DNA of 64,000 nucleotides from an uncultured Eubacteriales bacterium. Its GTDB lineage: Bacteria; Acidobacteriota; Aminicenantia; Aminicenantales; Aminicenantaceae. Of the stretch, positions 19,194-56,238 are shown in pieces; within the stretch, counting starts at the first letter, position 1, and every line of letters starts with the position of its first letter. The stretch is taken from positions 13,192-77,191 of the forward strand of contig CAYPGQ010000009.1 of assembly GCA_964410125.1 (NCBI GenBank), read 5' to 3'. The notes below the pieces were generated by a model. The model did no database searches. It was not told the origin of the DNA and worked only from the letters and a program-made list of their open reading frames with translations. The position numbers and the translations under genes were made by a program.

Positions 19194-19203
19194 GAGGCAA
19201 AAA

Positions 19204-28503: not shown

Positions 28504-30387
28504 CTACTGAACTTTGATGTTGATCCGCTTGGTGTCCGTGCCTCCGTTTTGAGACTTCACCTGAACCTCGACCCAGCCCTGGCCACCGTCCATCTTTACG
28601 AGAGCACCGAAACGGAGCGTCTGTTTTCCTTTCAGCCAAAACTCGGTTCCCTTTTTCGTGATCAATTCCACCTGCGCGCCGGGATTGGATGGATTGATAG
28701 CGGCTGAGCCTTTCGGAACCTCGATCATCGAAATATTGTTGGATGTCTTGAGCATGATCTTATCTTTTTTGACAAGTTTCAATTGTTGGCTTCTGTCCGA
28801 GGCAGTCGGGTAAACCCTGTTGTTTTTGACTGCTGCCTCGATCCAGTAAAGGTTATCCGCTGCCGGGCGCACGGTGATTTCCTCAACCTCGACCTTGGGG
28901 AACTGGCTGGCACAGTACATCACGAACTGGGCATTTTTGTAGGCTTCCTGCTCGATATACCGGGCAGGAGGGGTTCGGCGGATGTGTTTTTTCGGGGATC
29001 CGCCTATCCATATCTCCCCCAGGTCGGGGTGGTCTACTTTGTGCGGATTTATCCAACCTTCACCCATGAGCTCGATATCGATCCATTGGAGCATTTCTTC
29101 ATCGGAAACACGGCCGTCGCCGTCCATATCCGCATATTCGGCATTCGAACCCCAGAGTTCGATCAGATAGCTGTAAGCACCAAGCATGTAATAGGTGGCT
29201 GCGTTAGCCTGACCGCTGAGTCCACCGATGGTCGGGCGGTAATTTTGCAGAATTCGTGCCCCAGTGCTGACGATAGCCGTCTGGGTGTCCATATCGTGCT
29301 GATTGACCGGTGCCACCTGGCGGTCAAAAAGCTGAGCGTACTTGTTTCTTTCCCTCATCATCGCTAGACGTTGCTCTTGCATCTCTTGCATTCGCTGGGC
29401 CTGTTCGGCACTCATATTGGGCTGCCGGACTGCCGGAGGGGCCTGGAACATGACCAAACGGCCTGTATTGTGGTAGTGAAAACTGGCAAAGATGTTCGGA
29501 TGGTTGAGCTGAAACTCGAACACATTCCGGCATTCGGACTCTGACATCGGATAGGGATTTCCTGCCTGCAGGTTCCATCCGTAGGGATAATTCCTGTTGG
29601 GGTCAGGGCCACCGATGTCGTCCTCATTGATCAACCCGTCGCCGTCGTTGTCGTATCCTTCTCCGCCAATGCGGGTGAAAAGTTTTACTCCTTCTTCTGG
29701 ATTTTCTACACGGATGAATTGCCTCTTGTCAGCAGAGAGTTTGTAGTTCCCTTTGGGGCCCTCGATGTACATGGTAGAGAGTTCTCCATCACCGTCCACA
29801 TCTTCGGTTTGATCCTCATCGTAAAGCCCGTCGCCGTCGTTATCTTCCGGCCGGTAGGGTTCGCGCGGATTGTTCGGGGTGTTGGGATGTACGACAAAGG
29901 ATTCGTTGGCATCCACGTTCAATCCCGGCAGGAGGTAGAAGGTGCAGTTGTCCACAAGATCATGCACATAGGGATCGTAATTGTACCGTGTCAACAAGTA
30001 CCACATCAGATAAAGAGAGCATGTGATGCCGTTGACTTCATTACCGTGCACAGCACCGTCCACCCACATGGCTGTTTTCTCGGAATGTTTTCCGGTCGCC
30101 TTGGCTGTTATGGTGATTAAGTACTGGTCACGGTCCATCCGGCTTTTTCCGATGGACTGGATATCCGAGAGCTGCGGATACTTTTTTTGTATGTTGTGCA
30201 TGATTTTGGTCCACTCCGCATAGCTGTAATACCGGCTCCAACTGATCGGAAAGTCCAATTCTCCATGGTATCCACCCGGGCTTTTTTGCAGATTTTTCTG
30301 GGCGATGCCTGGGGGAGTCAGGACAAGAACCATGGTTATTACAAGAGTTGCTGTGTATTTAAACAATCTTTTGATTTTCATCTTCAT
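28504..30387 (-). CDS. M14-family zinc carboxypeptidase, exported, with Asp-rich Ca-binding-like inserts
   Basis: Signal peptide. It has the zinc motif VHGNEVNG (HxxE), NRNYP and a later FHYHNTG. The acidic DxDxDG-type loops are EDNDGDGLYDEDQTEDVDGDGE and YDNDGDGLINEDD. Confidence 0.85.
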   Translation of the reverse strand: MKMKIKRLFKYTATLVITMVLVLTPPGIAQKNLQKSPGGYHGELDFPISWSRYYSYAEWTKIMHNIQKKYPQLSDIQSIGKSRMDRDQYLITITAKATGKHSEKTAMWVDGAVHGNEVNGITCSLYLMWYLLTRYNYDPYVHDLVDNCTFYLLPGLNVDANESFVVHPNTPNNPREPYRPEDNDGDGLYDEDQTEDVDGDGELSTMYIEGPKGNYKLSADKRQFIRVENPEEGVKLFTRIGGEGYDNDGDGLINEDDIGGPDPNRNYPYGWNLQAGNPYPMSESECRNVFEFQLNHPNIFASFHYHNTGRLVMFQAPPAVRQPNMSAEQAQRMQEMQEQRLAMMRERNKYAQLFDRQVAPVNQHDMDTQTAIVSTGARILQNYRPTIGGLSGQANAATYYMLGAYSYLIELWGSNAEYADMDGDGRVSDEEMLQWIDIELMGEGWINPHKVDHPDLGEIWIGGSPKKHIRRTPPARYIEQEAYKNAQFVMYCASQFPKVEVEEITVRPAADNLYWIEAAVKNNRVYPTASDRSQQLKLVKKDKIMLKTSNNISMIEVPKGSAAINPSNPGAQVELITKKGTEFWLKGKQTLRFGALVKMDGGQGWVEVQVKSQNGGTDTKRINIKVQ

Positions 30388-30394
30388 CCTCCCT

Positions 30395-32521: not shown

Positions 32522-32687
32522 AACATTGTCCCTCCATAAGTTAGATATTTGTAAAAAAAAGTTGGGATGACTTGATAAGAACACATGGAAAGATATTACA
32601 TAATACAATCGGACGATAAAATCAATCATTTCCTACATTCCCTTGCTTGGCTTCCGAAACGGATAGAGATTAAATGAGATAGGCTAA

Positions 32688-34735: not shown

Positions 34736-37147
34736 ATGTTCAAAAACTATTTGAAGATCGCATACCGAAACTTAGCCAAACACAAATTTTATTCATTGAT
34801 CAATATTTTTGGGCTCTCTCTAGGAATAGCCAGCTGCATTTTGATCTTTGCTTACATCGGATATGAACTTTCTTATGATGGTTACCACAAAAACGCGGAC
34901 AATATCTATCGAGTCGTTTCCAGAAGAACAGTATCGGGACAGACGAGTGAACTTGCCAGATCGCCAGCACCGGTAGGACCGACAATGGTGGAGGAGCTGC
35001 CGGAAGTTAAAAATGCCGTGAGATTCAGTCCAACAGTAAAAAGAGTATTTGCCTATAAAGACAGGACTTTTTTCGAAGACGGTGTGCTGTATGTTGATCA
35101 GTCCATTTTTGACGTTTTTTCATTTGAGATGATCGAAGGTGACTCCAAAACGGCTCTGGAAGTCCCGTTCACCATGGTTTTTACCGAAAAAACCGCTAAA
35201 AAATACTTTGGCGACGAAAGCCCGATCGGAAAAATCATCAATTGGGACAATAAATTCGACTATCGGGTTACAGGAGTTGTGAAAGATCCTCCTCCCAACT
35301 CCCATTTCACTTTCAATGCTCTGGCATCGTTTTCAACTTTTATCAAATATGATCCCCGCATAGGGTCCTGGAATGGAGGAAGCTTCCAAACCTATTTGCT
35401 GATGCAGGACAACACCGATTTCAAGAAATTCGAGCAGAAGATGAAAAGATTCCATGAAAAATATCTTGGGCCTGCATTGAAGGAAAGGGGAATTGAACTG
35501 GAGGCCTATCTTCAGCCTTTAAAAAGTATTCACCTGCACTCGAATGTTCAGTATGAATTGGGCGATAACAGCGATATCCGATTGATTTATGCTTTTTGGG
35601 CTATTGCCGTTATTGTTCTTTTGATCGCATGTATCAACTTCATGAATCTCTCGACTGCCCGTTCTGCAGGCCGAGCGAAAGAAGTGGGAATGCGCAAAGT
35701 TCTTGGAGCCCAGAGAACAAAGCTCATCGTTCAATTTCTTGGGGAATCATTTGTATTTGCGTTATTATCTTTAGTCTTCGCTATCCTTCTGGCACGGCTT
35801 TTTTTGCCGTATTTTTCTGGCCTTGCAGGTAAAAATATTTCCTTGAATACCTTTGAAATGCCATATGTGTATGCTGTTTTGGTCGCGATCGTGTTATTTG
35901 TCGGGTTGGTTGCCGGAAGCTATCCCGCGTTTTTTCTGTCCGCCTTCAAACCTATTTCGGCTCTTAGAGGACATGTCCCAGAAGGTTCAAAAAGCTCTTG
36001 GTTTCGTTCCATCCTGGTTGTCTTTCAATTTGCTCTCTCCATCATCTTGATCATCTGCACCATAATCGTGTTTAATCAGCACAAATACATGCAAAACAAA
36101 GACCTCGGTTTTAACAAGCAGAATTTGTTGGCTGTCGCGGTCCAGAATAATGAGGTGAGAATCGGATTGGAATCTTTCAAACAGGACTTGCTGAATATCA
36201 ACGGGATCGAAAACGCTGGGCTTTCATCCATGGTGCCAGGAGAAATGTATTTGTTCAACATCGGGACCTACCCTGAAGGATATGCCCGAGATCAGATGAT
36301 CAGGATGGACAATTTTCTCGTGGATTATGGCTTCCTAGATACCTTTGAGATCGTTGTGATCCAAGGGCGGGGATTTTCCAAAGAGATAACGACGGATTTT
36401 ACAGATGCTGTGATGATCAATGAGACGGCTGCCAAAAACCTTAGTTGGAATGACCCTGTAGGGAAAACGATCGAGATCTCTTCGGATGATGGCCTAGTCA
36501 GGAAAACAGTCATCGGAGTTTTCAAGGATATCCACCAGAGGTCTTTATACTCTGTCGTTGCTCCGACGGTAATCCAATACATCGGTACAGAAGGGGCCAT
36601 CGAGAACAGAGCGAGGAGGCTGACGTTACGACTGAACACCGACGACATTTCAGGAATTATGAAAAAAATAGAACAGAAGTGGAAACACACATTTCCGAAT
36701 CATCCCTATTATTCCTTTTTCCTGGACGAGTTTTTTGACGGTCAACATCGAGCCGAGGGAAAACTGGGCAGCATTTTCCAGACATTTTCTGTTTTGGCTG
36801 TTATCATTGGCTGTCTTGGATTGTTTGGCCTTTCGTCATTTTTAGCCGAGCAGCGGACCAAGGAAATCGGTATCAGAAAGGTGCTTGGCTCTTCGGTAAG
36901 TTCCATCGTGGTTTTGCTTTGCCGGAAATTTTTCTTATTGGTCGGTATTGCAAATGTGCTTGCCTGGCCAGTCGCCTTTTTGGCGATGACCAAATGGCTG
37001 CAGAATTTCCCCTATCCGGTTAAAATTGGAATCAGCACATTTATCTTTATGGCAATATTTACCTTTGTCATTGCATTGTTTACAGTTGGGTTTCAATCGG
37101 TCAAGGCAGCACGTGCAAATCCCGTCGATTCTCTTAGATATGAGTAG
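34736..37147 (+). CDS. Duplicated FtsX/MacB-type ABC permease (ADOP-like orphan permease, ~800 aa)
   Basis: It has the N-terminal YRNLAKHKFYSLINIFGLSLGIA helix. Two MacB-periplasmic-core + FtsX units each carry the F(M/L)...RxKE(V/I)G(M/I)RKVLGA signature. It ends in NPVDSLRYE. No ATPase gene is adjacent. Confidence 0.9.
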   Translation: MFKNYLKIAYRNLAKHKFYSLINIFGLSLGIASCILIFAYIGYELSYDGYHKNADNIYRVVSRRTVSGQTSELARSPAPVGPTMVEELPEVKNAVRFSPTVKRVFAYKDRTFFEDGVLYVDQSIFDVFSFEMIEGDSKTALEVPFTMVFTEKTAKKYFGDESPIGKIINWDNKFDYRVTGVVKDPPPNSHFTFNALASFSTFIKYDPRIGSWNGGSFQTYLLMQDNTDFKKFEQKMKRFHEKYLGPALKERGIELEAYLQPLKSIHLHSNVQYELGDNSDIRLIYAFWAIAVIVLLIACINFMNLSTARSAGRAKEVGMRKVLGAQRTKLIVQFLGESFVFALLSLVFAILLARLFLPYFSGLAGKNISLNTFEMPYVYAVLVAIVLFVGLVAGSYPAFFLSAFKPISALRGHVPEGSKSSWFRSILVVFQFALSIILIICTIIVFNQHKYMQNKDLGFNKQNLLAVAVQNNEVRIGLESFKQDLLNINGIENAGLSSMVPGEMYLFNIGTYPEGYARDQMIRMDNFLVDYGFLDTFEIVVIQGRGFSKEITTDFTDAVMINETAAKNLSWNDPVGKTIEISSDDGLVRKTVIGVFKDIHQRSLYSVVAPTVIQYIGTEGAIENRARRLTLRLNTDDISGIMKKIEQKWKHTFPNHPYYSFFLDEFFDGQHRAEGKLGSIFQTFSVLAVIIGCLGLFGLSSFLAEQRTKEIGIRKVLGSSVSSIVVLLCRKFFLLVGIANVLAWPVAFLAMTKWLQNFPYPVKIGISTFIFMAIFTFVIALFTVGFQSVKAARANPVDSLRYE

Positions 37148-39879: not shown

Positions 39880-40298
39880 TTAGGAGTTGAGGGCGAGATC
39901 AAATCCCGTAAGTTTGAAGACTACAGCATATTTGCTCATTGGTTGGCCTGAGCTGAGTTTTGGCGGTTGAATCGTCAGCGTTTGATCGTCATTGATCCTG
40001 TATGTCACATTTTCCGGATTGCCCACCAGTCGGCCTTGAACATCGGTACGAAGTCATGATAGCCGAACTCTGCGGGATCTCCGTAGGCTTGCACATGGTG
40101 TTGATATACCGTGCTGCCTTTTCTGTGCATGTTGCGGGGATACCACTCGCTCCCGAATGACGGTACCGAATAGATTCCCCAGTGGAAGTAGATGCCCAGT
40201 TTGGCATCCTGGAACCACTCGGGTGCTTCGTTATGTTTATACAGTGACTCCCACTCCGCGATATACTTAGGTTCTTGGTCGGTTGATAACGCTTCTGA
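39880..40298 (-). pseudogene. GH29 alpha-L-fucosidase relic (N- and C-terminal fragments joined by a large internal deletion, plus an in-frame stop)
   Basis: The minus-strand frame reads ...YIAEWESLYKHNEAPEWFQDAKLGIYFHWGIYSVPSFGSEWYPRNMHRKGSTVYQHHVQAYGDPAEFGYHDFVPMFKAD. This is the GH29 N-terminal signature. Around 40020-40030 it shifts frame into a C-terminal-type tail (GNPENVTYRINDDQTLTIQPP...YAVVFKLTG...stop at 39880). The fragment has no start codon, so it is absent from the ORF track. Confidence 0.65.
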
Positions 40299-40497: not shown

Positions 40498-43161
40498 TTA
40501 ATCCAAAGATGTCCAATCGAGTTCGTGTGTTTCCCTGCTGGCTATGATCTTTCGAAAAACCTCTTCAGGCCATTTGAGAACTCCGTCCACCATCAGCAGG
40601 TCATGTCGTATGTTGATCCCGAAAAGGCGTTCGTTTTCCTGAAGATAGGGAAGAATAGTATTCCAATCTTCTCGGCGGAAGGACAGGAACTCTGCGCCGT
40701 TCAGCTGATTTTCTGCGACGGTTTTGTAAGGATCGTTCAGGTAGCAAGCTCCTCCCGATGCCAGGGAAAACAGGTTGTTCCCGGGATATTTCATTTCTAA
40801 TCCAATTACTTCACCACGTGCGTCATAGGTCAAACCGTTGATGATCACGAATCCTCCACCCGTTTGTTCACCGGCCATAAAACTTTCCGCACAATAATCG
40901 AGGCAGGTGCCGTTGATGATGGCCCGGATACAGCCAACGGCATTGATCAGGGGGCGTCCTGCCGCAGATCCCATGATGAAGGCTTCTCCGCCTTTGGCAC
41001 CATACAGGAATGTCTGGCCCACGTTTCCGAATATCACGATTTTCCCTGACTTGAGGATCTGTCCCACCTGGTCTTGAGCATCGCCATGGACGTACATGTG
41101 GGTGCCATCCAAACCACTGCCAAGGTAATCACCACTGGAGCCGTAAACGTCGATACGAACATCACCGGTATTGGGACCCAATCCACAGCCGATAAACCTG
41201 TCACCCCGGCAGCGATAAACGATGAAATTCCTCCAACCTTTGGCATGGGTGATGGCAATGACTCTTGATACAGCTTCGGACCCATCATTGGGGAAATTTC
41301 CAGCGTCGATCACCATGGTATCCGTGGATTGGCCGGGTTCGGGAAGCGGGTTTTCCCAAGCGCTGCTTCCATCCAATCTTATCATTCCTGTCTTGTTTTT
41401 TTTCCCGGGTGAAGGTACAGAATCCAGGATATCCTGGATCGATTGTTCTATGGCAGCGATCTGAAATGTCCGTTGGCCATCCCCCGGATCCCAACGTCTG
41501 TCGCGGAGCAAGGTCAGCTTTCTAAGAGTTTTATTCATCCCGTTTTCTTTAACCAGCCCTTTGGCCACCTTCTTGAAATTTGCGTACCGATTCTGTCGAA
41601 GGTCCATCATCAATTCCCTCGCCATTGCTTGAGAGGGATCATGATGTATATGTGATGACCAATCGGGAACTTCCTTTTCCCGATCGGGCTGGCTTGATTC
41701 CTTTCCTTTGTTGTTTGTCCGGCGTTCGAGGTGAAGAGGTGGGGATTGCTTCTGTTTTACAGTTCCAGGAAATGATTTTCCGTTGACCTGGTTGCCGAAC
41801 TTATCCCGGACATCCAATGTTGTGGTCCCGTTTTCTTTTTTCAGAGTGTACACAAATGCCCCACCGTCTGTGCAGCTTCCTCCTCGGGCGGCCCAATACC
41901 GGTCTGCCAGAGGAGGCACGCTTGAATCCTGTGAGGCAATTTCCTCAAAAAAGGCGTCGAGGGCTTGTTTTTCACTGGCAATAGCCCCGTAGCTTTTTTC
42001 TCCTTCGTGTAAACAAAAAACTTGCGGCCTGAGCATGGATACATCGGTGATCCCGATAAGCTGCGGTGCACCCGTTCCGGGCTCGGCCCGGGCAACGATA
42101 AAAAACCACGGCCCGTCGGGAGAGCCATGCAGGTGGGCCGACTGGATTGCCCGGTAGATTCGCTGGCGAGACTTGGACAAACGTTCAAAATCACCCTCAG
42201 GTGTGGGTGCCAATGCCTCGATCACAAATTCCAGTGGATACCCGAGTACCCGGGAGTACAAATCAAAAAGCAGCACGGAGACCTCTGTATCGGTAATAAA
42301 CTGAGGGACAAGTCCCCACTGGCGCAGGTATTCACAGACAGCATGGTAATTGGCAAAATCTCCGTTATGAACAAGGGCTTCCTGCAGGCCGACAAACGGA
42401 TGCGCACCTCCGGGATGCCAAACACGTCCTCTGGTTGGGTACCGCTGGTGTCCGATCCAAAGATGCGCTCTGGTTTCTTCCAGGCGGTAATAACGTGCGA
42501 TCTCCTCGGCATACCCAACACCTTTCAGGATCATGAGGTCCCGGCCGTGTGACAGGACAAAAGCTCGCGGATCCTGCCGGTTCTCGTAAAACTCGGCATT
42601 CAGGCGGAAACTGTTCTGAAAAACAAATTCATCCTCTGCATCTGTAATGTCTGGGATCTGGTTTTTTTCTGCGAAGTGTTCCAACTGTTCTGGTTTGACC
42701 CGCACAAAATACCGCCACACAATAGGTGGTTTGACCGTCAATCCTGTTTCGCGATAATCGTCTATGCTTTTCTGTTCTTCAGCATAGGAAACAAAAAAAA
42801 CGGATTTTATGTACTTTTTTTCGACCGGCCCTCTTGCTTTTTCGTCGAGGAAAGAAATGTGCAGGGCATAAAAATCTTTGTACTCGTTGAACAATCCCAC
42901 TGCAGCCACACCGCCCCCTTTACCGTTTCCCCGGTTCCTCATCTGTTCACACGGGCGGATGATGCAATCGCCTTTGAGTTTTTCACTTCCGATAAGACCT
43001 ATAACTCCGCATCCTCCTTCCAGTGATCGCTTTTTTGTGAATGTTCTACCTGCGATATTGTTCAAACGGGATCGTGCGATTGCCTCTGCGATTTCTGCTG
43101 CGTTATCTCTTATTATCAAGTCTGATTCACCTATTCGGGTTGATAATCCAAAAGGTCCCAC
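40498..43161 (-). CDS. Glutamate-synthase-related fusion protein: class-II (Ntn) glutamine amidotransferase domain + long linker + GXGXG (GltB C-terminal) domain
   Basis: A nucleophile Cys follows a propeptide (SLEGGCGVIGLIG). The GATase_2 blocks are HQRYPTRG and HNGDFANY. The C-terminus has the GXGXG repeats (YGSSGDYLGSGLDG, VHGDAQDQVGQ, FGNVGQTFLYGAKGG). The start is either GTG 43161 or TTG 43119, the latter behind AGGTGA and 11 nt after the upstream stop. Confidence 0.8.
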   Translation of the reverse strand: MGPFGLSTRIGESDLIIRDNAAEIAEAIARSRLNNIAGRTFTKKRSLEGGCGVIGLIGSEKLKGDCIIRPCEQMRNRGNGKGGGVAAVGLFNEYKDFYALHISFLDEKARGPVEKKYIKSVFFVSYAEEQKSIDDYRETGLTVKPPIVWRYFVRVKPEQLEHFAEKNQIPDITDAEDEFVFQNSFRLNAEFYENRQDPRAFVLSHGRDLMILKGVGYAEEIARYYRLEETRAHLWIGHQRYPTRGRVWHPGGAHPFVGLQEALVHNGDFANYHAVCEYLRQWGLVPQFITDTEVSVLLFDLYSRVLGYPLEFVIEALAPTPEGDFERLSKSRQRIYRAIQSAHLHGSPDGPWFFIVARAEPGTGAPQLIGITDVSMLRPQVFCLHEGEKSYGAIASEKQALDAFFEEIASQDSSVPPLADRYWAARGGSCTDGGAFVYTLKKENGTTTLDVRDKFGNQVNGKSFPGTVKQKQSPPLHLERRTNNKGKESSQPDREKEVPDWSSHIHHDPSQAMARELMMDLRQNRYANFKKVAKGLVKENGMNKTLRKLTLLRDRRWDPGDGQRTFQIAAIEQSIQDILDSVPSPGKKNKTGMIRLDGSSAWENPLPEPGQSTDTMVIDAGNFPNDGSEAVSRVIAITHAKGWRNFIVYRCRGDRFIGCGLGPNTGDVRIDVYGSSGDYLGSGLDGTHMYVHGDAQDQVGQILKSGKIVIFGNVGQTFLYGAKGGEAFIMGSAAGRPLINAVGCIRAIINGTCLDYCAESFMAGEQTGGGFVIINGLTYDARGEVIGLEMKYPGNNLFSLASGGACYLNDPYKTVAENQLNGAEFLSFRREDWNTILPYLQENERLFGINIRHDLLMVDGVLKWPEEVFRKIIASRETHELDWTSLD

Positions 43162-46031
43162 CGCCCCCGCAATTGATCGATATTGGTCATGCCCAGGCTG
43201 CGAAGGCGCTGTTCCATATCAACGGCAAAACTCTTATACAAGTTGCAGATCCTGCCGCATACCCATTCGGCGGTCATTTGTGGTGCCAGCTCAGGGTCGG
43301 TTGTAGCAATGCCGATCGGGCAGCCCCTCTCCCGTTCGCAGTTTCCGCACCGGACGCAGTCGATCGCCACCAATTCAGCAGTGCCGATGACCACTCCGTC
43401 TGCGCCCAAGGCTATCATCTTGAGTATGTCTTCACTGGTGCGGATGCCTCCGCTTGCGATGAGCACCACTTCATCCCGAATCCCTTCTTTGACCAAAAAC
43501 TCATGTGTTTGAGATGTGGCGTATTCGATCGGCATGGCAATGTTTTTTTTGGCTATATCGGGAGCTGCGCCCGTGCCTCCGTATGCTCCATCAAGATGGA
43601 TGACATTGGCACCGGCATAGTAGCTCCCCACGGCGACCATATCTACATCCACCGGTGTGGAGACCTTGACCGAAACAAGCACATCGGGGTGTATGGAACG
43701 GATCCAATCCACATGCTTTTTGTGGTCTTCCACCGAATACACGCTGTGGAACGGGAACGGTGAAAACAGGTTCGTGTACGGAACAGCCTCGCGCATCGAT
43801 GCCACTTCCGGCGTGTTTTTTTCACCCAACAGGTGACCTCCCAGGCCTGGTTTTGCGCCCTGAGCATATTTGAACTCGATTATCGGGGCACGCTGGATAG
43901 TCTCTTCCCGTACACCGAATAGTCCTGTGGCAACCTGCGTGATAATGGAATCCGAATAAGGAACGAGCTCGTCCGGATAGCCGCCTTCCCCCGTGCAGGT
44001 CAAAGACCCGATTTTTTTAGCTGCCATGGCGCGACCCAACATGACCTGCAAAGAAATGGACCCGTAGGACATGCCTCCTCCGTAAATCGGGAGAGAGATT
44101 TTTTTCTTTGGGCCTGTTTTGCGTCTGTTAAGCGGAAGAGAGAGCGCGACCGGTCCTTGTACCGGAGCTATCCCGGGGACTGATAGAGCGAGTCGCATCC
44201 TGTCCAATCCGCCTCCTGATGATCCGATCTGTTCCTCTGGCTTCAACTTTGAGGGAGATCCGTCCCATGACAATCGGTAAGTTTCGCGCAGCAAATCCGG
44301 CGTCCAACGGGGGTCACCCAGGACCGTGTCGACCGAATCCTTCACGATTTCCAGGGCCTCCCAGGGGCAAACATTCACACAACACCATTCATTTTCTTTG
44401 CATGAAGGCCCGATGCACCGACTGTGGATCGGCTCGTCCAGGGCTCGTTTGCCGTCCGTTCGACGGTGCACATCGTATTCACATTTCACCACGCATATGT
44501 TGCAGTTTGTGCATCGTGTACGGTCCACGAGGACACGCCATCCTCCGTGTTTGATCCCGAACCGGTCTGGAACCGATTTGGCTTTTATGTGAGGCAAGGG
44601 ACCATCCAAGTTTTTATTGGTACCCTCAGGAGTGGTCTTGGAAACGTTTCCGGGCATGTTTTTAAGTCTTTCAGAGAAATTTTTTCGCTCCGTATCCGCG
44701 AAAATCGCGCGACCGGTTTCCCCTCGCAACCGCCGTACGTCCCGAAGTCCCATGGCTCCCAGTACTTCCAACAGCTGGTCTCTCCAAGAAAGCATCAGAT
44801 TGATAACTCGGGAAGCTCCCCATCGAGGATCGAGCTCCTCGATCCCTTTCGGATACAATGTTGGGCTCCCTTTTTCATCCGGCATCCATTTTGTCACATC
44901 CATGGCTATCAAGAGCGGGATGTCCACCACGACAGCATCAGCCCCCATGATGATGGTTTTGGGCACATGTTCGGCAGCAGCGATTCCTCCTGAGGCTACC
45001 AAGGTGATCCTGTCCCGCAGACCTTTCTCCACAAGCAAGGTGTGGGTGGTATGAAGGGATTCCAACAGGGTAACACCGTCGCTGCCTCTCCCATGAATGT
45101 CGGCGCTCAAATGCACGGTTTCGGCTCCGTTGCGGGCCAGTTCAAGAATTTGTCGTTCCGCACTATCAGAAACAGGCACGTGAATAACGGTAAGCACATT
45201 GGGATTGATCTCTCTCGCGTGGACAATGGCAGCTACCGGATCCTTATCTGGATCGAACTCGACGATCGTGGCCCATTCTATAATGTCCCTGTATTGATCT
45301 ATTTCATTCGGGTTTAACCGGATCAACAGATGGCTGTAATATTCCTTCAACTCTTGGGTAGTGTTTTTTGCCGGGATACTCAGATAGGTCTTCAGTTTGC
45401 TCGCTGCCAATGCAAGGGAAGAAAGGGCTGTGTGCCCGGGAAAAAACGGCATAAGACCGAATATAACCGGGACCGGGATTTCTCGGTTAAGCGGAATATG
45501 GGATTTCAGGTTGCCTTTTTTATCGAACACCATCCCGCACAAGTCACTGGCCATCCGCCCAAGAGCGACAGTCGTAGAAATGTGTTCCCTGCCATGGATT
45601 CCGTCACGTGTGGGCCGCACAATTTCAGACATGTCTGTCCAGATATTGTCGTAATAATCGCCGTCGAAAGGTCCTCTATAACCGGCTCCGCTGACAGGAA
45701 TTTTCCCTTGTTCTGCCTGTTCCAAAATGGAATGGATGTGGTCAGGTGTGTATGTTTCATCTCCCAACCCGAGATATTTCTCGTTTTTTTGCATGCTTAG
45801 GGCATCTCTGGGACAACTTTTGATGCAGGCGAAACAGTTCCGGCAGCCGTATTCCTTCGGGTCGGCCATTATCCGGGGATCATCTTCTGATCGGTAATGA
45901 CAGTCGTAGATACAGGCCTCTATGCAGGTCCCGCAGTTGATGCAGCGATCGCTGCGGAGGATCTGGTAAGGGGTGATGATGGGATAACGCGAAGGAGTCG
46001 GTCGCGGGGAGAGGCGTTTAAGGTGAGTCAT
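43131..46031 (-). CDS. Glutamate-synthase FMN-domain protein with two tandem [ferredoxin + GltS-type TIM-barrel] modules
   Basis: Module 2 has the full GltS set (PIYGGGMSYGS, TGEGG, QGAKPGLGGHL, HLDGAYGGTGAAP, ASGGIRT...ALGADGV, CVRCGNCERERGCPIGIATTD). Module 1 has its own 2x Cys clusters and ASGGIAA...MGADAVVV, but lacks the GEGG and KPGxGG blocks. The ATG at 46031 overlaps the upstream stop (ATGA). Confidence 0.8.
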   Translation of the reverse strand: MTHLKRLSPRPTPSRYPIITPYQILRSDRCINCGTCIEACIYDCHYRSEDDPRIMADPKEYGCRNCFACIKSCPRDALSMQKNEKYLGLGDETYTPDHIHSILEQAEQGKIPVSGAGYRGPFDGDYYDNIWTDMSEIVRPTRDGIHGREHISTTVALGRMASDLCGMVFDKKGNLKSHIPLNREIPVPVIFGLMPFFPGHTALSSLALAASKLKTYLSIPAKNTTQELKEYYSHLLIRLNPNEIDQYRDIIEWATIVEFDPDKDPVAAIVHAREINPNVLTVIHVPVSDSAERQILELARNGAETVHLSADIHGRGSDGVTLLESLHTTHTLLVEKGLRDRITLVASGGIAAAEHVPKTIIMGADAVVVDIPLLIAMDVTKWMPDEKGSPTLYPKGIEELDPRWGASRVINLMLSWRDQLLEVLGAMGLRDVRRLRGETGRAIFADTERKNFSERLKNMPGNVSKTTPEGTNKNLDGPLPHIKAKSVPDRFGIKHGGWRVLVDRTRCTNCNICVVKCEYDVHRRTDGKRALDEPIHSRCIGPSCKENEWCCVNVCPWEALEIVKDSVDTVLGDPRWTPDLLRETYRLSWDGSPSKLKPEEQIGSSGGGLDRMRLALSVPGIAPVQGPVALSLPLNRRKTGPKKKISLPIYGGGMSYGSISLQVMLGRAMAAKKIGSLTCTGEGGYPDELVPYSDSIITQVATGLFGVREETIQRAPIIEFKYAQGAKPGLGGHLLGEKNTPEVASMREAVPYTNLFSPFPFHSVYSVEDHKKHVDWIRSIHPDVLVSVKVSTPVDVDMVAVGSYYAGANVIHLDGAYGGTGAAPDIAKKNIAMPIEYATSQTHEFLVKEGIRDEVVLIASGGIRTSEDILKMIALGADGVVIGTAELVAIDCVRCGNCERERGCPIGIATTDPELAPQMTAEWVCGRICNLYKSFAVDMEQRLRSLGMTNIDQLRGRWDLLDYQPE

Positions 46032-48025
46032 CCCCTTCCTCCCTCCATGGGAGACCATTCCGGAAGATCCAATCCGAAAATGTCCTTGATGTACTCCCGG
46101 TTGCTGTCCAGTTTTTCGACAAATTCTTGTACGGTTTCAACAGGGGATCCGAACCGGTTTTCAATCCAATCCTCGAGGATAAGATAACAATCGCGCAAAG
46201 GCAAATGAGTTTGACAGACTTCCTCACACAATCCGCAGTGCAGGCATTGAAACAGGGAATGTGCCTCTGCCTGGTCCAATTCCTCTCCGTTCATCATGGC
46301 CTCGGCCAAACGCAGTTTGGTCCTGCCGGTAACCAACTCGTCTTTGGTGATGTGGTAGGCCGGGCAAACCGAAATACAGGATCCGCAGGACGTGCAGCGT
46401 TGCGCACTTTGGTGCAGAAGGCTTCTTCCCTGTTCCTCTTCTTTTTCAGGAACTTCCCAGCCGTCAGACTGCTTCGGCCCTAAAAGCCTGGCAGTAAGTC
46501 CCAATACCGGTGCAAAAAAATAGGAAATGGCCATAATCATGCGGAAGGAAAGAGGACGCATGAAAAGTGCAGGGATGCTGAAAAACCGTCCCTTGATCTT
46601 GAAAAATTTATGGGGATTCAGCGTTTCGCCGGGATCTATGTCCTGTTTTTTTCTGTTTAGTTCGTCCAACCGGTCTTTCTTGAATTTGCTCCCTACAAAA
46701 GGCGTGTTCCATATGCCCACTCCGTACGGGTGGCCTTTGCTGCGCACGGCCATCCTGACCAAGAGCTGGATAAACAATAAGCATAAAACATAATGAAGTT
46801 TTCGGGAATAATCACAGCTGAAAGACAGGATGACCAGATAGGAGTAATGTTTTTTATCGCGGCAGACGATTACCTCGATCGTGGGTTTTATGTTGAAATG
46901 CCGCGCCAACTTCCTGGCTTTCCGAATATATCGGGGTATCTTTTCTCCGGGGATCACCACCTCTGTTCCTAGAAGCCCAGGGCTAATCCGTTGAGCTTTG
47001 AGCGGAAAATAGCGGTCAGACCAGAGGTAGCGGGCGGCCAACCGGTATTCCTGGATCTGATCCAAATTCCCATTCAATGAAGATAGGAATTTTTGCTCGT
47101 TTTCCCGAGTCTCGAAATGAAGAAGGACCGTATCATCCTCAGGAACGATGGGGTCCGTTATGCCGGTATGTTCTGTGAAAAGGATGTCTTCCTTTTTCAT
47201 GTATTCTCTGTCAAAATACACAACATGAGAGGGATGATTATCTCGGCCAGCAAGTTGTTCCACAAATTTAAATGCCTGTTCAGGCGTTTTGAAAGTCAAC
47301 AGACAGACTCCGCTGTAATGCGGTTTCGGGCGGACGCGTAATGTGACTTCCGTCAGGATGCCGAATTGCCCTTCGGTCCCGAAAAGATCTTTTATGGATT
47401 TGCTCGTGGAGTCCAGTTCCTGAATGGATCCATCTGGACGGGCAACACGAACTCTCAGTACGGATTCGCTGACATGGCCATAAGCATAGCTGTCCAATCC
47501 CATTCCCCCGGTGGCAATCCATCCGCCAACCGTGGAAAACCTGCTCGTCGGTGTTGTCACAGAAATCAAACCATAAGGCTCAAGTTTTGTCGCCACATCT
47601 GCCCACCGGGTTCCCGGTTGCACACGAACGGATAAGCTTTCGGGATTGACCTCAATAACAGCCATCATAGGGGAAAGGTCCATCACGATCCCTCTCCGAG
47701 TAGGAACAGCGCCTCCAAAGGCGAAAGAGCCTGTTCCCCGGGGAAATAATGCAAGACCTCGAGATTTACAGAAAGTCATGATTTTTGCAATATCATGCTC
47801 ATTCTCAGGCTGTACGACCAATAGAGGTGTCGTGCGTATGAGTGTTTTTTCTATCAGAGGCGGAACACGAGCCAGATCTTTGCTGTAATTTTTCCGCTCA
47901 AAAAAGTTTAGAACCACTCGACAGGATTCTCCCACATGGGATTTGAGATCTTGTGCCAGCATATCGATTTGATTCTTTCGCAAAGGGGTGTCACGGTCTA
48001 TCAGATGCCGCCATAACTGTCTCAT
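46028..48025 (-). CDS. FAD-linked oxidase (GlcD/D-lactate dehydrogenase-like) fused to a 2x[4Fe-4S] ferredoxin-type domain
   Basis: It has a PCMH-type FAD-binding domain (LFPRGTGSFAFGGAV...GGWIATGGMG) and an FAD-oxidase C-like middle part. A hydrophobic segment follows, then CTSCGSCISVCPAY and CLHCGLCEEVCQTHLP. Confidence 0.75.
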   Translation of the reverse strand: MRQLWRHLIDRDTPLRKNQIDMLAQDLKSHVGESCRVVLNFFERKNYSKDLARVPPLIEKTLIRTTPLLVVQPENEHDIAKIMTFCKSRGLALFPRGTGSFAFGGAVPTRRGIVMDLSPMMAVIEVNPESLSVRVQPGTRWADVATKLEPYGLISVTTPTSRFSTVGGWIATGGMGLDSYAYGHVSESVLRVRVARPDGSIQELDSTSKSIKDLFGTEGQFGILTEVTLRVRPKPHYSGVCLLTFKTPEQAFKFVEQLAGRDNHPSHVVYFDREYMKKEDILFTEHTGITDPIVPEDDTVLLHFETRENEQKFLSSLNGNLDQIQEYRLAARYLWSDRYFPLKAQRISPGLLGTEVVIPGEKIPRYIRKARKLARHFNIKPTIEVIVCRDKKHYSYLVILSFSCDYSRKLHYVLCLLFIQLLVRMAVRSKGHPYGVGIWNTPFVGSKFKKDRLDELNRKKQDIDPGETLNPHKFFKIKGRFFSIPALFMRPLSFRMIMAISYFFAPVLGLTARLLGPKQSDGWEVPEKEEEQGRSLLHQSAQRCTSCGSCISVCPAYHITKDELVTGRTKLRLAEAMMNGEELDQAEAHSLFQCLHCGLCEEVCQTHLPLRDCYLILEDWIENRFGSPVETVQEFVEKLDSNREYIKDIFGLDLPEWSPMEGGRG

Positions 48026-48258
48026 TCGAAATGTTTTTTTCCTATATCAAGTCTAAAATATGTTTAATTGTCCTTAAATATATAATAGAATATTTCATAT
48101 GTCAACAAAAACATAAAAAAAATATATAAAAGAATTGAATTAATAGACAATATAAAACGTTTGTTACTTTTTGTGATTTGTTCTATTTCCCATTAGATTT
48201 TTGGTGTATGAATGAACTCCAACGCTATAAAATCATTTGATATTTAATGTTCGTTCCT

Positions 48259-48281: not shown

Positions 48282-48339
48282 AAAGGACTTAGGAATAAAT
48301 TGTGAAGCGAAAGAATGATTATGTGAAAAGGAGAATTTG

Positions 48340-49275
48340 ATGTCACAGAAGAAATGGGACAGCAACGACATACCTGACCAGAAAGGAAAAGTGGCCATCG
48401 TGACGGGTTCCAGCAGCGGTATCGGTTACGAAACGGCTCGTGTGCTTGCTAACAAAAATGCCGAGGTGATTATGGCAGTGCGTAATCTGCAAAAGGGGAA
48501 TGCAGCCCTAGATAAAATTAAAGCTGGTTACCAAGATGCAGATGTAAAGGTTATGGAGTTGGACTTAGCCAGCCTGGAATCGCTACGTAGATTTGCCGAG
48601 GATTTTAAGAAGACTTTTTCTCGACTGGATCTATTGATCAATAATGCTGGAGTCATGATGCCGCCATATTCCAAAACGGCCGATGGATTCGAACTCCAAT
48701 TCGGAACGAATCATTTGGGTCACTTTGCCTTGACCGGTCTCTTGATGGATCTGATTATAAACACAGAGAACTCACGTGTTGTCAATGTGAGCAGCACGAG
48801 CCACAAAAGCGGAAAAATTGATTTCAATGATCTCGATTGGGAAAAACGCACATATAAAAAGATGCGGGCCTACGGCGATAGTAAAATCGCTAACATCTAT
48901 TTTACCTTTGAGCTGCAGAGAAAGTTAGAGAGAGCGGGATCGAATACGAGCGCTGTCGCCTCACATCCAGGTTGGACAAGAACTGAACTCCAACGGCATG
49001 TTGGCTTTATTCATTTTCTGAATCGCTTTTTATCCCAGGGGATTGATATAGGGGCGCTGCCGACCCTTTATGCGGCAATTGCTCCAGATGTTAAGGGCGG
49101 TGATTATTATGGTCCTGCAGGCTGGCAAGAGATGAGGGGGTATCCGAAAAAAGTTGGATCCAATAAATTGTCTCAGGATAAAGATATAGCACAAAAACTT
49201 TGGAGAGTATCTAAAAAACTCACAGGGATCGAATATGAGTCACTCATAGCGGAGAGACTTGACCTGGTCAGCTGA
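48340..49275 (+). CDS. Short-chain dehydrogenase/reductase (classical SDR)
   Basis: The motifs are TGSSSGIGYETA (TGxxxGxG), NNAG and YGDSK (YxxxK). The ATG at 48340 lies behind GGAGAA. The 3' end overlaps the convergent permease gene by 36 nt. Confidence 0.9.
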   Translation: MSQKKWDSNDIPDQKGKVAIVTGSSSGIGYETARVLANKNAEVIMAVRNLQKGNAALDKIKAGYQDADVKVMELDLASLESLRRFAEDFKKTFSRLDLLINNAGVMMPPYSKTADGFELQFGTNHLGHFALTGLLMDLIINTENSRVVNVSSTSHKSGKIDFNDLDWEKRTYKKMRAYGDSKIANIYFTFELQRKLERAGSNTSAVASHPGWTRTELQRHVGFIHFLNRFLSQGIDIGALPTLYAAIAPDVKGGDYYGPAGWQEMRGYPKKVGSNKLSQDKDIAQKLWRVSKKLTGIEYESLIAERLDLVS

Positions 49276-51774
49276 GGCGGCCCTGAGAGTTTGATAGCTG
49301 ACAGTCATCATAGCCACCGCAAACACAAGCCCACCGGCAAACACAAAATCCCCAATTCCGTTAGAGGTTCGGTAGGAGAAATTCTGGAGCCACTTTTGTA
49401 AGATAAAATAAGAAATGGGCCAAGCGATCACATTGGCTAACAACACCCATTTTAAAAATTCCTTGGACAGTAGGATTTGAATGCCTATCCTCGATGCTCC
49501 CAAGACTTTTCGGATCCCAATCTCTTTGGTTCTTTGTTCGGTGGCGTAGGAGACCAGCCCGAATAAACCGAGGCATGAGATAAACACTGCCAAAACAGAT
49601 AGGATGTTTATAAATCGTCCCAATTCTTTTTCAGAACGGTATAAACTGTCTATCTCTTCGTCGAAGAAGCGCAAGCGGAAAGAACGGTTAGGATTGATCT
49701 GTTTCCAACTATCGGCCAAAACTTGAAGGGCTTCTGGCGTACGGCCAGGCACCATCCGCACGAAAACATAATTGCTCCAGGACGGCTCCATCAGGAATGC
49801 CACAGGCTCTATTTCTTCATGGACAGAGTGGTGATGAAAATCTTTTACTACACCCATAATTTCTCCCCTTTTATCGTCTAACGAAAACCACTTTCCTAAA
49901 GGAGAATTGAGTCCCATTACCTTTATGGCTGATTCATTGAGAATGTAACCTTGTTTGGTGTCCGTCGACATTTCCTTGGAAAAAAACCGCCCTTCCTTCA
50001 TATCCATCCCGAAAGTCCGGAGATAGTCGAAATCCACGGTCCTGATCTGGACATTCATTATGTCCTCGGCTGTTTTCCCTTCCCAGGAAACACCTGTTGT
50101 CTCAATGCCCAACCATAATAAGGGTGCATTTGTGGCTGTCACGCAGGATATGGACGGACTTTGGATGAGGGCGTGCTTGATGGTTTCCAGTTGGAGATGC
50201 GGATTATCTCCCAACTGGAAGAAGGCCAGGTTTTCCTTGTCCAATCCCAAATCTTTGCTTCGAATGAAATGAAGCTGCCTTGAAACCACAAGCGTGCAGA
50301 TGATCAGAGCCAGGGAAATGGCAAACTGAAAAACCACCAAAAATCGTCTGGTATTCAACATTTTTTTTGTTGACTGAGAAAAACTTTTGAAAATCTTGAC
50401 CGGAGGGAAAGACGAAAGAAATACAGCGGGATAGATCCCGGATACGGCACTGGTAAAGACAATCACAGTTGAGATAGCTGCGATGATGGGAACCGTTCCT
50501 AAAATATCCAATCCGATATCTTTGCCCAAAAGGCGGTTTAAAAGCGGAAGAAAAATATAAATGAGCCCCATGGCCAAGATGGCGCTTATAAAGGATAGAA
50601 CCAGTGACTCTCCGAAGAACTGCCCGATCAGGCTTGGCCGTCTCGCACCTATGACTTTTCTTACGCCAACCTCAAGGGAACGTTTCCCGAATCGGGCGGT
50701 GGACAAATTCATGAAGTTAATACAGGCTACAATCAGGATAAACAGGGCCAGAATGACGGCAATCGACACATATACTATGGGACCTCCCCCCTCCAATGAA
50801 CGAAGATGGATTTCCGTCAGTGGCTGAAATATGAGACGGGATGATGTTTTAGGAACTCGATCCTGCACAAAGTTTTCCAGCCGGTGATTGAGTTCAAAAT
50901 GATCGACATTTTCACGAAGCATGACGTAGGTTTTGGAATCGGAAGAGTTCCAACGATCCAAAGACTGTCCTTTCCGGATGAGATAGTCGCTGGGTATAAC
51001 ATATTCGAACTTTAGATGAGAGTTTTCGGACACATTTTTCAAAATACCAGTAATCTGGAATGGATCTCCGTTGGTCGCTGTTAATGTTTTTCCCATTGGA
51101 TCTTGTCTTTCGAAGCATACCTGTGCCATCTTTTTGGTTATGATTATAGATTGAGGACCTGCCAAGGCAGTGCTTGGATTTCCTTCCTTTAAAGGAAAGG
51201 TGAAAAGCTGAAAAATTTCCGGATCTGCGAAAAGCCCGTCTTCATCGTAAATTTTGTCCTTATTATCGCCAAAGGTAAATGCCACCCCTGCATGTCTTAG
51301 ACGGGCGGCTTTTTCGATTTCATGATAGTTTGCCGCCAAAGCTGGTGCTAGGGGAGAGGGAGTGGAGGGTGTTTTGAATATCCGATCGGTTTTTCTCTCC
51401 TGGACTATGCGGTATATGTTCTTTGCATTATCATGGAAGCGGTCATAACTCAATTCATCCATGGCCCAAAATATCAACATCAAGCTGGAGGCCATCCCCA
51501 TGGCCAGTCCCATGATATTGATGAAGGAATAACCTTTATTTCTCTTTATATTTCGTAAGGCCATTTTTAAAAAATGTTTAAGCATTGTTTTCCTCGTTAC
51601 ATAAGAAAATTTGATATAGGCCGGGATGGAATACACCGCCTGCCACCAGTACCATAGGAAAGCCCGAATTTTCCCATTTTCTGCCGCTATCCTTTGGTAC
51701 TCTTCATCGAAATCCGCCACCATCGAGAATTCATCCTCATATCGGCGCAAAAGGGAAATAATCCACCGCTTCAT
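49240..51774 (-). CDS. Duplicated FtsX/MacB-type permease with N-terminal prefix domain (ADOP-like), coupled to PadR
   Basis: 844 aa. A ~60-aa N-terminal extension precedes ALRNIKRNKGYSFINIMGLAMGMA. It has two FtsX units (FMNLSTARFGKRSLEVGVRKVIGA; EQRTKEIGIRKVLGA) and ends in QVKSLRYE. A 4-nt ATGA overlap joins it to padR. Confidence 0.9.
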   Translation of the reverse strand: MKRWIISLLRRYEDEFSMVADFDEEYQRIAAENGKIRAFLWYWWQAVYSIPAYIKFSYVTRKTMLKHFLKMALRNIKRNKGYSFINIMGLAMGMASSLMLIFWAMDELSYDRFHDNAKNIYRIVQERKTDRIFKTPSTPSPLAPALAANYHEIEKAARLRHAGVAFTFGDNKDKIYDEDGLFADPEIFQLFTFPLKEGNPSTALAGPQSIIITKKMAQVCFERQDPMGKTLTATNGDPFQITGILKNVSENSHLKFEYVIPSDYLIRKGQSLDRWNSSDSKTYVMLRENVDHFELNHRLENFVQDRVPKTSSRLIFQPLTEIHLRSLEGGGPIVYVSIAVILALFILIVACINFMNLSTARFGKRSLEVGVRKVIGARRPSLIGQFFGESLVLSFISAILAMGLIYIFLPLLNRLLGKDIGLDILGTVPIIAAISTVIVFTSAVSGIYPAVFLSSFPPVKIFKSFSQSTKKMLNTRRFLVVFQFAISLALIICTLVVSRQLHFIRSKDLGLDKENLAFFQLGDNPHLQLETIKHALIQSPSISCVTATNAPLLWLGIETTGVSWEGKTAEDIMNVQIRTVDFDYLRTFGMDMKEGRFFSKEMSTDTKQGYILNESAIKVMGLNSPLGKWFSLDDKRGEIMGVVKDFHHHSVHEEIEPVAFLMEPSWSNYVFVRMVPGRTPEALQVLADSWKQINPNRSFRLRFFDEEIDSLYRSEKELGRFINILSVLAVFISCLGLFGLVSYATEQRTKEIGIRKVLGASRIGIQILLSKEFLKWVLLANVIAWPISYFILQKWLQNFSYRTSNGIGDFVFAGGLVFAVAMMTVSYQTLRAASADQVKSLRYE

Positions 51775-52100
51775 TCTCTGTGACTCCTCACAAGATCCTG
51801 CAAATTTGTCCAGATCGCTTCGTGGAGGTCAAGAGCTTTTAAAAGGGCCTCTTTGCCTTTAGTTGTAGGTTTATAATACATCCTTCTGCGCCCGCGCCTT
51901 TCTGGAACTAGATCTCCCTTTGTTTTGGTCACATATCCTTTGCGCAACAGTTGGTCCATCACGTTATAAAGAGTCCCATACATGATGTTTTTGTTTGCGA
52001 TTTCACGCACTTTTCTCCGGATTGCCATGCTGAAGGCCTCATCCTCAAGACTGATGATGGAAGCCAGGATGAGCTGCTCCAAAACCGTTAGATTTCTCAT
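51771..52100 (-). CDS. PadR-family transcriptional regulator
   Basis: 109 aa. The winged-helix pattern is MYGTLYNVMDQLLRKGYV...RRGRRRMYYKPTTKGKEAL. Confidence 0.9.
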   Translation of the reverse strand: MRNLTVLEQLILASIISLEDEAFSMAIRRKVREIANKNIMYGTLYNVMDQLLRKGYVTKTKGDLVPERRGRRRMYYKPTTKGKEALLKALDLHEAIWTNLQDLVRSHRE

Positions 52101-55882: not shown

Positions 55883-56238
55883 CTCAATTCTTCAAAATCA
55901 TCAATTGTTTATCCTAATCACTCACTTTTTGAGCAGTCGTGCTTAATACATCCTCGCTGTCAATATGGGGACGTCCCTGTATTGTCTGGTCATTATAGAT
56001 TCTGTCGTTTGTTATGCTTCTTTCAGTTCCATCTAATATTGAATTTTTTCACGAGAAGAAAGCCCAAAAAAATCCTGGTATATTTTACGAAAGAGGGCAT
56101 ATAATATTCACCTGTTTTTGTATTTATGGAATGATATCTCTTTCGAAGCATTTTGGCAGAATTATGACTGTCCGTGAGGACTCTAACACAACATGGGATT
56201 AATTTGTGGTGATAAAATTTTTCTTGGAGGTATTTTTA

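Follow-up and report, generated by a model that had tools for sequence, protein, structure and literature searches.

Nitrogen enters biomass mainly through glutamate synthase (GOGAT), and the locus described here raises the question of what kind of enzyme is made when the parts of a glutamate synthase are spread over two genes that lie behind a flavoprotein gene. The DNA that was analysed, referred to as the window, is a stretch of 64,000 nucleotides (nt) from an uncultured bacterium of the Aminicenantales (contig CAYPGQ010000009.1, positions 13,192 to 77,191). Its positions 40498-48025 are filled by three long minus-strand open reading frames (ORFs), identified from an ORF listing with translations and named a, b and c here in 5′ to 3′ order. 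Their domain content, conserved catalytic motifs and conserved gene order, together with natural a-b-c fusion proteins and a nitrogen-assimilation neighbourhood, point to an answer that is considered probable: the three proteins would form one iron-sulfur (Fe-S) flavoenzyme complex, a permuted split glutamate synthase that makes glutamate from glutamine and 2-oxoglutarate and takes up its electrons through a. Judged from their conservation as a pair and from their nitrogen-assimilation neighbours, b-c are most likely a real glutamate synthase. The enzyme kind is known; what is new is the enzyme variant, a split and permuted core with a flavoprotein partner.

The initial annotation of this DNA, made by a model from the letters, had supposed that the combination was uncharacterised, and no paper on the a-b-c architecture was found, an absence that is weak evidence as the searchable literature consisted of open-access papers and preprints. 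No curated NCBIfam model covers a, b or c above its cutoff, and databases label their homologues only as 'FAD-binding protein', 'glutamate synthase-related protein' or 'alpha-hydroxy-acid oxidizing protein' (JGI labels include 'domain-containing protein 1/3').

Three coupled minus-strand genes

The three genes had been described as translationally coupled, and both junctions were found as described. The TGA of a (46030-46028) overlaps the ATG of b (46031-46029) in an ATGA at 46028-46031, with GGAGGGAGG immediately 5′ of that ATG, and a second possible ATG of b lies at 46058, which would lengthen the protein from 966 to 975 amino acids (aa). Gene b ends at 43131, and c either overlaps it by 31 nt (GTG 43161) or follows after an 11-nt gap (TTG 43119); the TTG is favoured as the start because most homologues are 873 aa long. 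With lengths of 665, 966 and 873 aa for a, b and c, and with their Pfam scores, chance ORFs are excluded.

Of the promoter-like sites in the region, the best one (TTGACA-17-TATATT) sits in an AT-rich 311-nt intergenic gap 5′ of gene a, which is common to a divergent short-chain dehydrogenase gene (48337-49275, +), and the same promoter scan found no comparable minus-strand site between the three genes. The region as a whole has no more promoter-like sites than the shuffled expectation, and the presence of the 48077..48105 site upstream of a only is suggestive, no more, of a single transcription start for a-b-c.

Glutamate synthase elements of b and c

Gene c carries an N-terminal nucleophile (Ntn) glutamine amidotransferase and a GXGXG beta-helix in one chain (Pfam GATase_6, 27 bits, and GXGXG, 53 bits), as the initial annotation had it. 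The ~350-aa linker that was placed between them did not stand: this stretch is mostly the large GltB-type amidotransferase domain, and the error arose from the short GATase_6 match. What separates the two domains is about 50 aa of low-complexity, poorly conserved and predicted disordered sequence (residues 448-496) followed by about 70 aa of confidently predicted helices (497-566). Residues 1-36 are a variable leader ahead of EGG-CGVIG and, by analogy with known Ntn amidotransferases, would be a propeptide whose removal exposes Cys37. The distance from this cysteine to HQRY is 187 aa, long as in GltB. Both HNG[DE].AN and H[QH]R[YF].T are present in all 82 members of the c family, and G[GS]CG in 78 of them, while positions 597-744 of the family profile align to GltB 1203-1359 and also to FwdC. 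An AlphaFold2 (AF2) model of c, made with 26 close homologues, had a mean predicted local distance difference test score (pLDDT) of 55, with the amidotransferase core below 50, and was too poor for a fold search; it was used for the linker boundaries only. The closest relatives come from Candidatus Aminicenantes (Acidobacteriota), with the best metagenome proteins at 91% and the complete genome CP070750.1 at 86% identity.

Gene b had been described as two ferredoxin plus FMN-barrel modules (FMN, flavin mononucleotide). The ferredoxin-like domains and both barrels were found, but only the second barrel keeps the FMN, 2-oxoglutarate and cluster motifs. Pfam matches Glu_synthase (PF01645) to b with 340 bits over two stretches, and Fer4 at 35-89 and about 509-530. 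Barrel 2 aligns with B. subtilis GltA (a GltB; 7mfm_G, E 1e-52) and with 1ea0/2vdc, the elements TGEGG, AQGAKPGxGG, R, GGTGA and SGG...GAD all being present. Across 39 b family members these FMN and 2-oxoglutarate motifs are at least 90% conserved, as are the cysteines of ferredoxin-like domain 1. On alignment, the catalytic residues of the amidotransferase and of the FMN site are present, as the first reading of the locus as an amination system presupposed. The four-cysteine loop of barrel 2 would hold a [4Fe-4S] cluster adjoining the FMN.

Barrel 1 is a relative of barrel 2 (26% identity over 224 aa, E 7e-21). It retains SGGI...GAD and the strongly conserved WTDMSEIVRPTRDGIHGRE, which is among the most conserved segments of b and argues that barrel 1 is functional. 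It is without the AQGAKPG 2-oxoglutarate motif and, in Aminicenantes, also without the cluster cysteines; in other phyla CxxCxxC...CP is kept in barrel 1 or in the corresponding separate B1 proteins. The loop concerned reads LLIAMDVTKW... in Aminicenantes versus, for example, LLIALECRLCKxC...CPV in most other lineages. In those lineages barrel 1 may bind one more Fe-S cluster than in the window protein, and perhaps a further flavin as well. Going by these motifs, the single catalytic barrel of b is the second one. The idea that barrel 1 is the counterpart of the GltB central domain was rejected as unproven, the module-1 profile matching the GltB FMN domain (976-1163) and not the central domain. 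The tandem barrels of b indicate that the synthase barrel was duplicated at least once; whether the GltB central domain arose from a duplication of this sort is a matter of debate (PMC8097209).

All four functional elements of GltB, as known from GltB/GltD of Azospirillum (1ea0/2vdc) and B. subtilis (7mfm), also occur in b-c. As in GltB, an Ntn amidotransferase that has a propeptide and a large insertion of the GltB type is joined by a GXGXG beta-helix, here in c, and an FMN barrel with 2-oxoglutarate motifs has an Fe-S cluster loop beside the FMN, here in b. Unlike the single-chain GltB, with its order of amidotransferase, central domain, FMN barrel and GXGXG, the elements are carried on two chains, one with amidotransferase and GXGXG and the other with two barrels. 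Further differences from GltB are the ferredoxin-like domain ahead of each barrel, the CxxCxxCx6CP loop with four cysteines in place of the three-cysteine Cx5Cx4C [3Fe-4S] motif, and an extra barrel that resembles the FMN domain and not the central domain. No gene for GltD (Fer4_20 + Pyr_redox_2) was found in the a-b-c operon, which bears out an earlier observation, and a VAO-type flavin adenine dinucleotide (FAD)/dicluster protein, a, stands in its stead; the only GltD-like domain of the window belongs to a PyrK-GltD fusion 19 kb away.

The domain order also differs from that of the three-protein archaeal form, as had been proposed. Archaeal split glutamate synthases (COG0067, COG0069 and COG0070) have their domains on separate chains, as here, and have been reviewed as 'ORFs encoding individual domains' (PMC8097209). 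Unlike in that form, c unites the amidotransferase with the beta-helix, and the FMN chain b has an extra ferredoxin plus barrel module; many lineages encode this module separately, as B1. The FMN barrel of the archaeal form is presumably preceded by a 2x[4Fe-4S] domain, and in b the second ferredoxin-like domain lies directly ahead of the FMN barrel. With everything that a glutamate synthase alpha subunit needs present, in rearranged form and with an Fe-S wire of its own, b-c are therefore read as the catalytic core.

Gene a is linked to b and c by order and by fusion

Gene a had been annotated as an FAD-linked oxidase fused to a 2x[4Fe-4S] domain, and Pfam agrees (FAD_binding_4, FAD-oxidase_C and Fer4_8). 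The scores of the first two both exceed the Pfam cutoffs, the match to the cap being weak. In the alignment of the FAD_binding_4 domain the RG...GG and GG.G motifs are kept across the a family, in which FAD and cluster motifs are strictly conserved and the dicluster cysteines are invariant in two family alignments, the two cysteine motifs implying 2x[4Fe-4S].

That the triad would be syntenic in related genomes was verified: a-b-c occur together in Aminicenantes genomes with differing flanking genes, in other phyla and in ANME-1 archaea. When the a family was used as a search profile, the matches were Aminicenantes proteins and many proteins of ANME-1/'Methanomicrobia'. Three of these, picked without reference to b or c, were looked up, and all three adjoin b-c, directly upstream. 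Their gene orders are ribbon-helix-helix regulator, glutamine synthetase, a, b1, b2, c, PurF (locus L086); glutamine synthetase, a, b1, b2, an inserted gene, c, CarB (L087); and a, b, c (L088). Nothing else speaks as strongly for a as a dedicated subunit and for a role of the system in nitrogen assimilation. The gap from a to b has a median of -4 nt (12 loci) and that from b to c a median of 4 nt (57 pairs).

Natural fusions join the same parts. A HMMER search with c gave 619 representatives at E <= 1e-10, giant proteins among them, and BLAST identified P0191 (2526 aa), P0149, P0241 and P0245 as a-b-c fusions, P0163 (3152 aa) as a c-a-b fusion and P0218 as a b-c fusion. The single chains that join a, b and c span 2500-3150 aa and derive from bacterial metagenome bins, Brocadiia included, and Pfam confirmed the fused domains in P0191 and P0163. 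In alignments the CGV nucleophile is retained in P0241, P0245, P0191 and P0163 even where c is internal, which implies self-cleavage of the fusion proteins. The natural a-b-c fusions indicate that the three parts work together and make the system directly testable. From gene order and fusions, a is read as a dedicated subunit, and probably as the electron-input module.

Locus L087, an ANME-1-type contig, carries two glutamine-synthetase-linked glutamate synthase clusters (1-4196 and 7555-17429), one with an FrhB-like subunit and the other with an a-type flavoprotein; in the second, a restriction-endonuclease-like gene lies between b2 and c.

Distribution and alternative upstream partners

When genomes were scanned at one per species, c had at least 547 relatives, with b-c as a conserved pair across many anaerobic phyla, and the best 80 loci were examined. 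These come from Aminicenantes, Eisenbacteria, Myxococcota, Latescibacterota, Chloroflexota, Desulfobacterota, Nitrospirota, Planctomycetota, Verrucomicrobiota, Bipolaricaulota, Fraserbacteria, ANME-1 and Methanospirareceae. Almost everywhere b lies directly upstream of c, either as one gene or as B1 (about 470 aa) and B2 (about 515 aa; Fer4 + Glu_synthase). Frequent neighbours of b-c are genes for glutamine synthetase, Amt, PII, CarAB and PurF, and the order glutamine synthetase, a, b1, b2, c recurs in L025, L045, L086 and L087.

The gene upstream of b could be evaluated at 46 loci and is a at 12, MetF/MetV/MvhD at 24 and something else, or nothing conserved, at 10. The MetF/MetV/MvhD loci (median MetF-to-b gap, 15 nt) often add HdrC, HdrB and a 1500-aa HdrA-like protein with a GltD-like module (Pfam). 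The order mvhD-metV-metF followed by b-c was seen in Desulfobacterota, Chloroflexota, Planctomycetota and Verrucomicrobiota (L027, L028, L030, L033, L038, L042, L050, L051, L053, L057, L058, L063, L065-L067, L069, L081 and L083-L085). For an operon link between methylene-tetrahydrofolate reductase/Hdr and glutamate synthase, no paper was found among open-access papers and preprints.

This distribution bears on the alternative that survives best, although it is still unlikely: b-c alone would be a ferredoxin-dependent glutamate synthase, and a an accessory, regulatory or conditional, and not the main electron entry. In its favour are the two ferredoxin-like 2x[4Fe-4S] domains of b itself, the 10 loci without a conserved upstream partner and the 24 with MetFV/MvhD in place of a, and the absence of a recognisable substrate site in a. 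However, fusions of the a-b-c and c-a-b types speak for a stoichiometric subunit, as does the ATGA coupling; the a family was seen only beside b-c (three members looked up), and strict conservation of its FAD and cluster motifs is not what an accessory would lead one to expect.

Relation of a to D-2-hydroxyacid dehydrogenases

Protein a has the FAD_binding_4 plus FAD-oxidase_C fold in common with GlcD/GlcF, LctD and mammalian LDHD. The closest sequence in the PDB is LctD of the Ldh-Etf complex (7qh2_C, E 5e-22), and other solved relatives are the D-lactate dehydrogenase/glycolate oxidase 9qgz, mouse LDHD and alkyl-dihydroxyacetone-phosphate synthase. An AF2 model of a (mean pLDDT 66), which suffices for fold assignment and not for active-site geometry, gave mouse LDHD as the top Foldseek match (E 8e-22, target-normalised template modelling score 0.69); residues 486-515 are hydrophobic helices in this model, a possible hint that a might be membrane-bound. 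The dicluster domain resembles the N-terminal part of GlcF (positions 22-94) or HdrC, and the protein stops right after it, no CCG domain being found there in a Pfam/NCBIfam scan. For many Aminicenantes homologues of a (e.g. L001 4872-7091) the annotated length is 739 aa, owing to some 70 additional N-terminal aa; this extension is blocked in the window by an in-frame stop and is not covered by the similarity; these are probably over-extended gene calls.

The initial annotation had raised the coupling of amination to a 2-hydroxyacid, and this was not supported. The HxGDGNxH and GEHG motifs, which we take from LDHD and D2HGDH structures to be the His/His/Glu metal ligands, were not found in a in alignments to LctD and 9qgz or in the family alignment, the identity in these regions being low. 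At the position of HxGDGNxH the a family has a segment that varies, and at that of GEHG it has the family-specific PYG[IV]G[IT]WN, which the fusion proteins share and which is kept in members from Aminicenantes through to ANME-1 (PYGVGIWN at 433-440 in the window, together with the conserved W335xxR338 and E355). Against NCBIfam, a scores 132 bits with glcD TIGR00387 (cutoff 568) and 106 bits with NF008408 (cutoff 897), far under the equivalog cutoffs. Unlike GlcD, LctD and LDHD, then, a is without metal-ligand motifs, and unlike GlcD and LctD it is encoded beside glutamate synthase genes and not beside GlcE/F or Etf.

It is improbable, then, that a is a true D-2-hydroxyacid dehydrogenase, for D-lactate, glycolate or D-2-hydroxyglutarate, whose hydroxyacid oxidation directly drives glutamate synthesis. 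Fold and best sequence matches (LctD, mouse LDHD, 9qgz) do point to D-lactate dehydrogenases, the WxxR arginine and the glutamate (E/D) before VxxP align with LctD, and by textbook potentials the D-lactate/pyruvate couple (about -190 mV) could power the glutamine-dependent reaction. The ligand motifs that this would call for match no conserved residues of a, with GEHG replaced by PYGxGxWN, the glcD equivalog score falls far short of its cutoff, and ANME-1 archaea, for which hydroxyacids are no obvious reductant, often carry the system. Somewhat less probable still is an enzyme other than glutamate synthase, either an amidotransferase-coupled reductase of another 2-oxoacid or imine or a glutamate-oxidising enzyme of a peptide fermenter, which would suit the scores of a, b and c far under NCBIfam equivalog cutoffs, the many peptidase genes of the window and the b-c pairs that in many phyla lie in metFV-hdr operons and not beside nitrogen genes, but is at odds with GltB motifs (presumably 2-oxoglutarate-binding) that are at least 90% conserved across the b family, with an intact glutaminase that fits the synthetic direction only and with recurrent glutamine synthetase, Amt, PII and PurF neighbours.

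Proposed mechanism and significance

The reading of a-b-c as one permuted split glutamate synthase with a as its electron input thus remains the preferred one, and several points weigh against it. Roughly three in four of the evaluable b-c loci have no a upstream of b, and b-c may manage without a, for instance by using ferredoxin directly. Lacking the metal ligands of its nearest characterised relatives, a would have no obvious substrate. Aminicenantes look proteolytic, to judge by the peptidase genes of the window, and their need for a glutamate synthase is not self-evident. Finally, the AF2 models are mediocre for a and poor for c.

In the proposed mechanism, c would be processed to expose Cys37, which would hydrolyse glutamine, and its beta-helix domain would have the same structural role as in GltB. 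Ammonia would pass to barrel 2 of b, where 2-oxoglutarate would be aminated and FMN would reduce the 2-iminoglutarate, with electrons reaching the FMN over the two ferredoxin-like domains of b and the nearby four-cysteine cluster. Barrel 1, a degenerate duplicate of the synthase barrel, would probably be a scaffold or tunnel element. In the place of GltD, the FAD of a would take electrons from a donor and hand them via its two clusters to b. We infer complex formation, cofactor content, direction of electron flow and propeptide cleavage, as well as any identity of the donor, from these comparisons. It is reasonable to suppose a different electron entry, and not a canonical NADPH-GOGAT.

To our knowledge, the split glutamate synthases of archaea and anaerobes have never been characterised biochemically, and their electron donors are guesses. 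A swappable input module on a split glutamate synthase has been put forward in the FrhB-linked 'F420-dependent glutamate synthase' (PMC3087415, PMC9012536), which follows the same logic as the present locus, with a split core and a non-GltD flavo-Fe-S input subunit alongside. Unlike in the FrhB-linked type, the input module a is a VAO/PCMH-fold FAD protein with no F420-binding domain. By analogy, a could be one of several interchangeable electron-input modules, as GltD is for NADPH and FrhB for F420.

A broader and more tentative extension, possible but doubtful, would make b-c a universal glutamate synthase 'socket' of anaerobes that takes lineage-specific redox plugs: the VAO-fold protein a in Aminicenantes, ANME-1 and others, fed by a donor that is neither NAD(P)H nor free ferredoxin nor F420, or MetFV-HdrABC-MvhD in Desulfobacterota, Chloroflexota, Planctomycetota and Verrucomicrobiota. 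If this were true, nitrogen assimilation would be hard-wired to catabolic electron-bifurcating machinery. We know of no established electron partner of MetFV-Hdr complexes, and glutamate synthesis could, on the same supposition, be that partner.

The locus defines a widespread two-chain core with a dedicated flavoprotein partner, in a three-gene form that is testable. Its interest lies also in the unexplained flavoprotein a and in the cross-phylum link to MetFV-Hdr operons.

Features of the locus and its surroundings

The coordinates of the genes and their parts are collected in Table 1.

Table 1 Features of the a-b-c locus, in coordinates of the window
Feature	Position	Strand	Description
Promoter-like site TTGACA-17-TATATT	48077..48105	-	11/12 matches; ~50 nt upstream of gene a
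Gene a	46028..48025	-	665-aa VAO/PCMH-family flavoprotein (GlcD / D-lactate-dehydrogenase fold) + C-terminal GlcF/HdrC-type dicluster domain
FAD_binding_4, a residues 67-204	47414..47827	-	Pfam 111 bits
FAD-oxidase_C cap, a residues 235-473	46607..47323	-	Pfam 32 bits
Dicluster, a residues 541-607	46205..46405	-	Fer4_8 41 bits; CxxCxxCxxxCP + CxxCxxCxxxCQ
Gene b	43131..46031	-	966 aa (975 from 46058); ferredoxin 1 + degenerate barrel + ferredoxin 2 + glutamate-synthase FMN barrel
Ferredoxin-like domain 1, b residues 30-73	45813..45944	-	Two CxxCxxCxxxC motifs
Barrel module 1, b residues about 95-470	44622..45749	-	Paralogue of synthase barrel
Ferredoxin-like domain 2, b residues 507-555	44367..44513	-	CxxCxxCxxxC + Cx3Cx6Cx3CP
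FMN / 2-oxoglutarate barrel, b residues 635-948	43188..44129	-	TGEGG, AQGAKPGLGGHLLGEK, VASMR, GGTGAAP, SGGI...GADG
Cluster loop CxxCxxCx6C(P), b residues 891-904	43320..43361	-	Four Cys vs three-Cys [3Fe-4S] motif of GltB
Gene c	40498..43119	-	873 aa from TTG 43119 (887 from GTG 43161); propeptide + Ntn glutamine amidotransferase + linker + GXGXG
Cys37 codon TGC in EGG-CGVIG	43009..43011	-	Predicted N-terminal nucleophile
Amidotransferase domain, c residues 37-445	41785..43011	-	IGHQRYPTRG, VHNGDFANY, TDTEV
True linker, c residues 448-566	41422..41778	-	Alignment + AF2 model
GXGXG beta-helix, c residues about 579-873	40501..41385	-	PF01493 53 bits

The 3′ side of gene c is formed by about 750 nt of non-coding DNA, beyond which lies an unrelated 2Fe-2S/molybdopterin oxidoreductase pair. 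Within the non-coding stretch, 83 codons at 40005-40256 (-) match positions 17-94 of a 345-position alpha-L-fucosidase profile with 84 bits, and by this partial match the remnant is a truncated alpha-L-fucosidase pseudogene. An Rfam scan of the whole window gave no leader and no riboswitch, and a tRNA scan no tRNA.

The only GltD homologue of the window is encoded at 19096-21486 (+), on the opposite strand and 19 kb from the operon. In this 796-aa protein a PyrK-like module (NAD_binding_1 + DHODB Fe-S) is fused to a GltD-like module (Fer4_20 + Pyr_redox_2), and from its domains it is an NfnB-NfnA-type (Nfn-like) single-chain protein. Just upstream of it, the gene at 15247-17337 (+) encodes a HisKA/HATPase histidine kinase fused to a [FeFe]-hydrogenase large-subunit-like domain that has ferredoxin motifs at its N terminus; its product looks like a putative H2- or redox-sensing kinase, and it is neighboured by genes for a response regulator and a hybrid PAS kinase (14542-15222 and 17625-19193).

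Four paralogous genes for MacB_PCD/FtsX permeases of about 800 aa are spread over the window, at 34736-37147 (+), 49240-51774 (-), 59872-62265 (+) and 62275-63975 (-), one of them preceded by a PadR regulator gene (51771-52100, -). Genes for M14, M24 and M1 peptidases are found at 27105-32629 and 56206-58569, and permeases and peptidases, as predicted from sequence, fit a proteolytic Acidobacteriota lifestyle.

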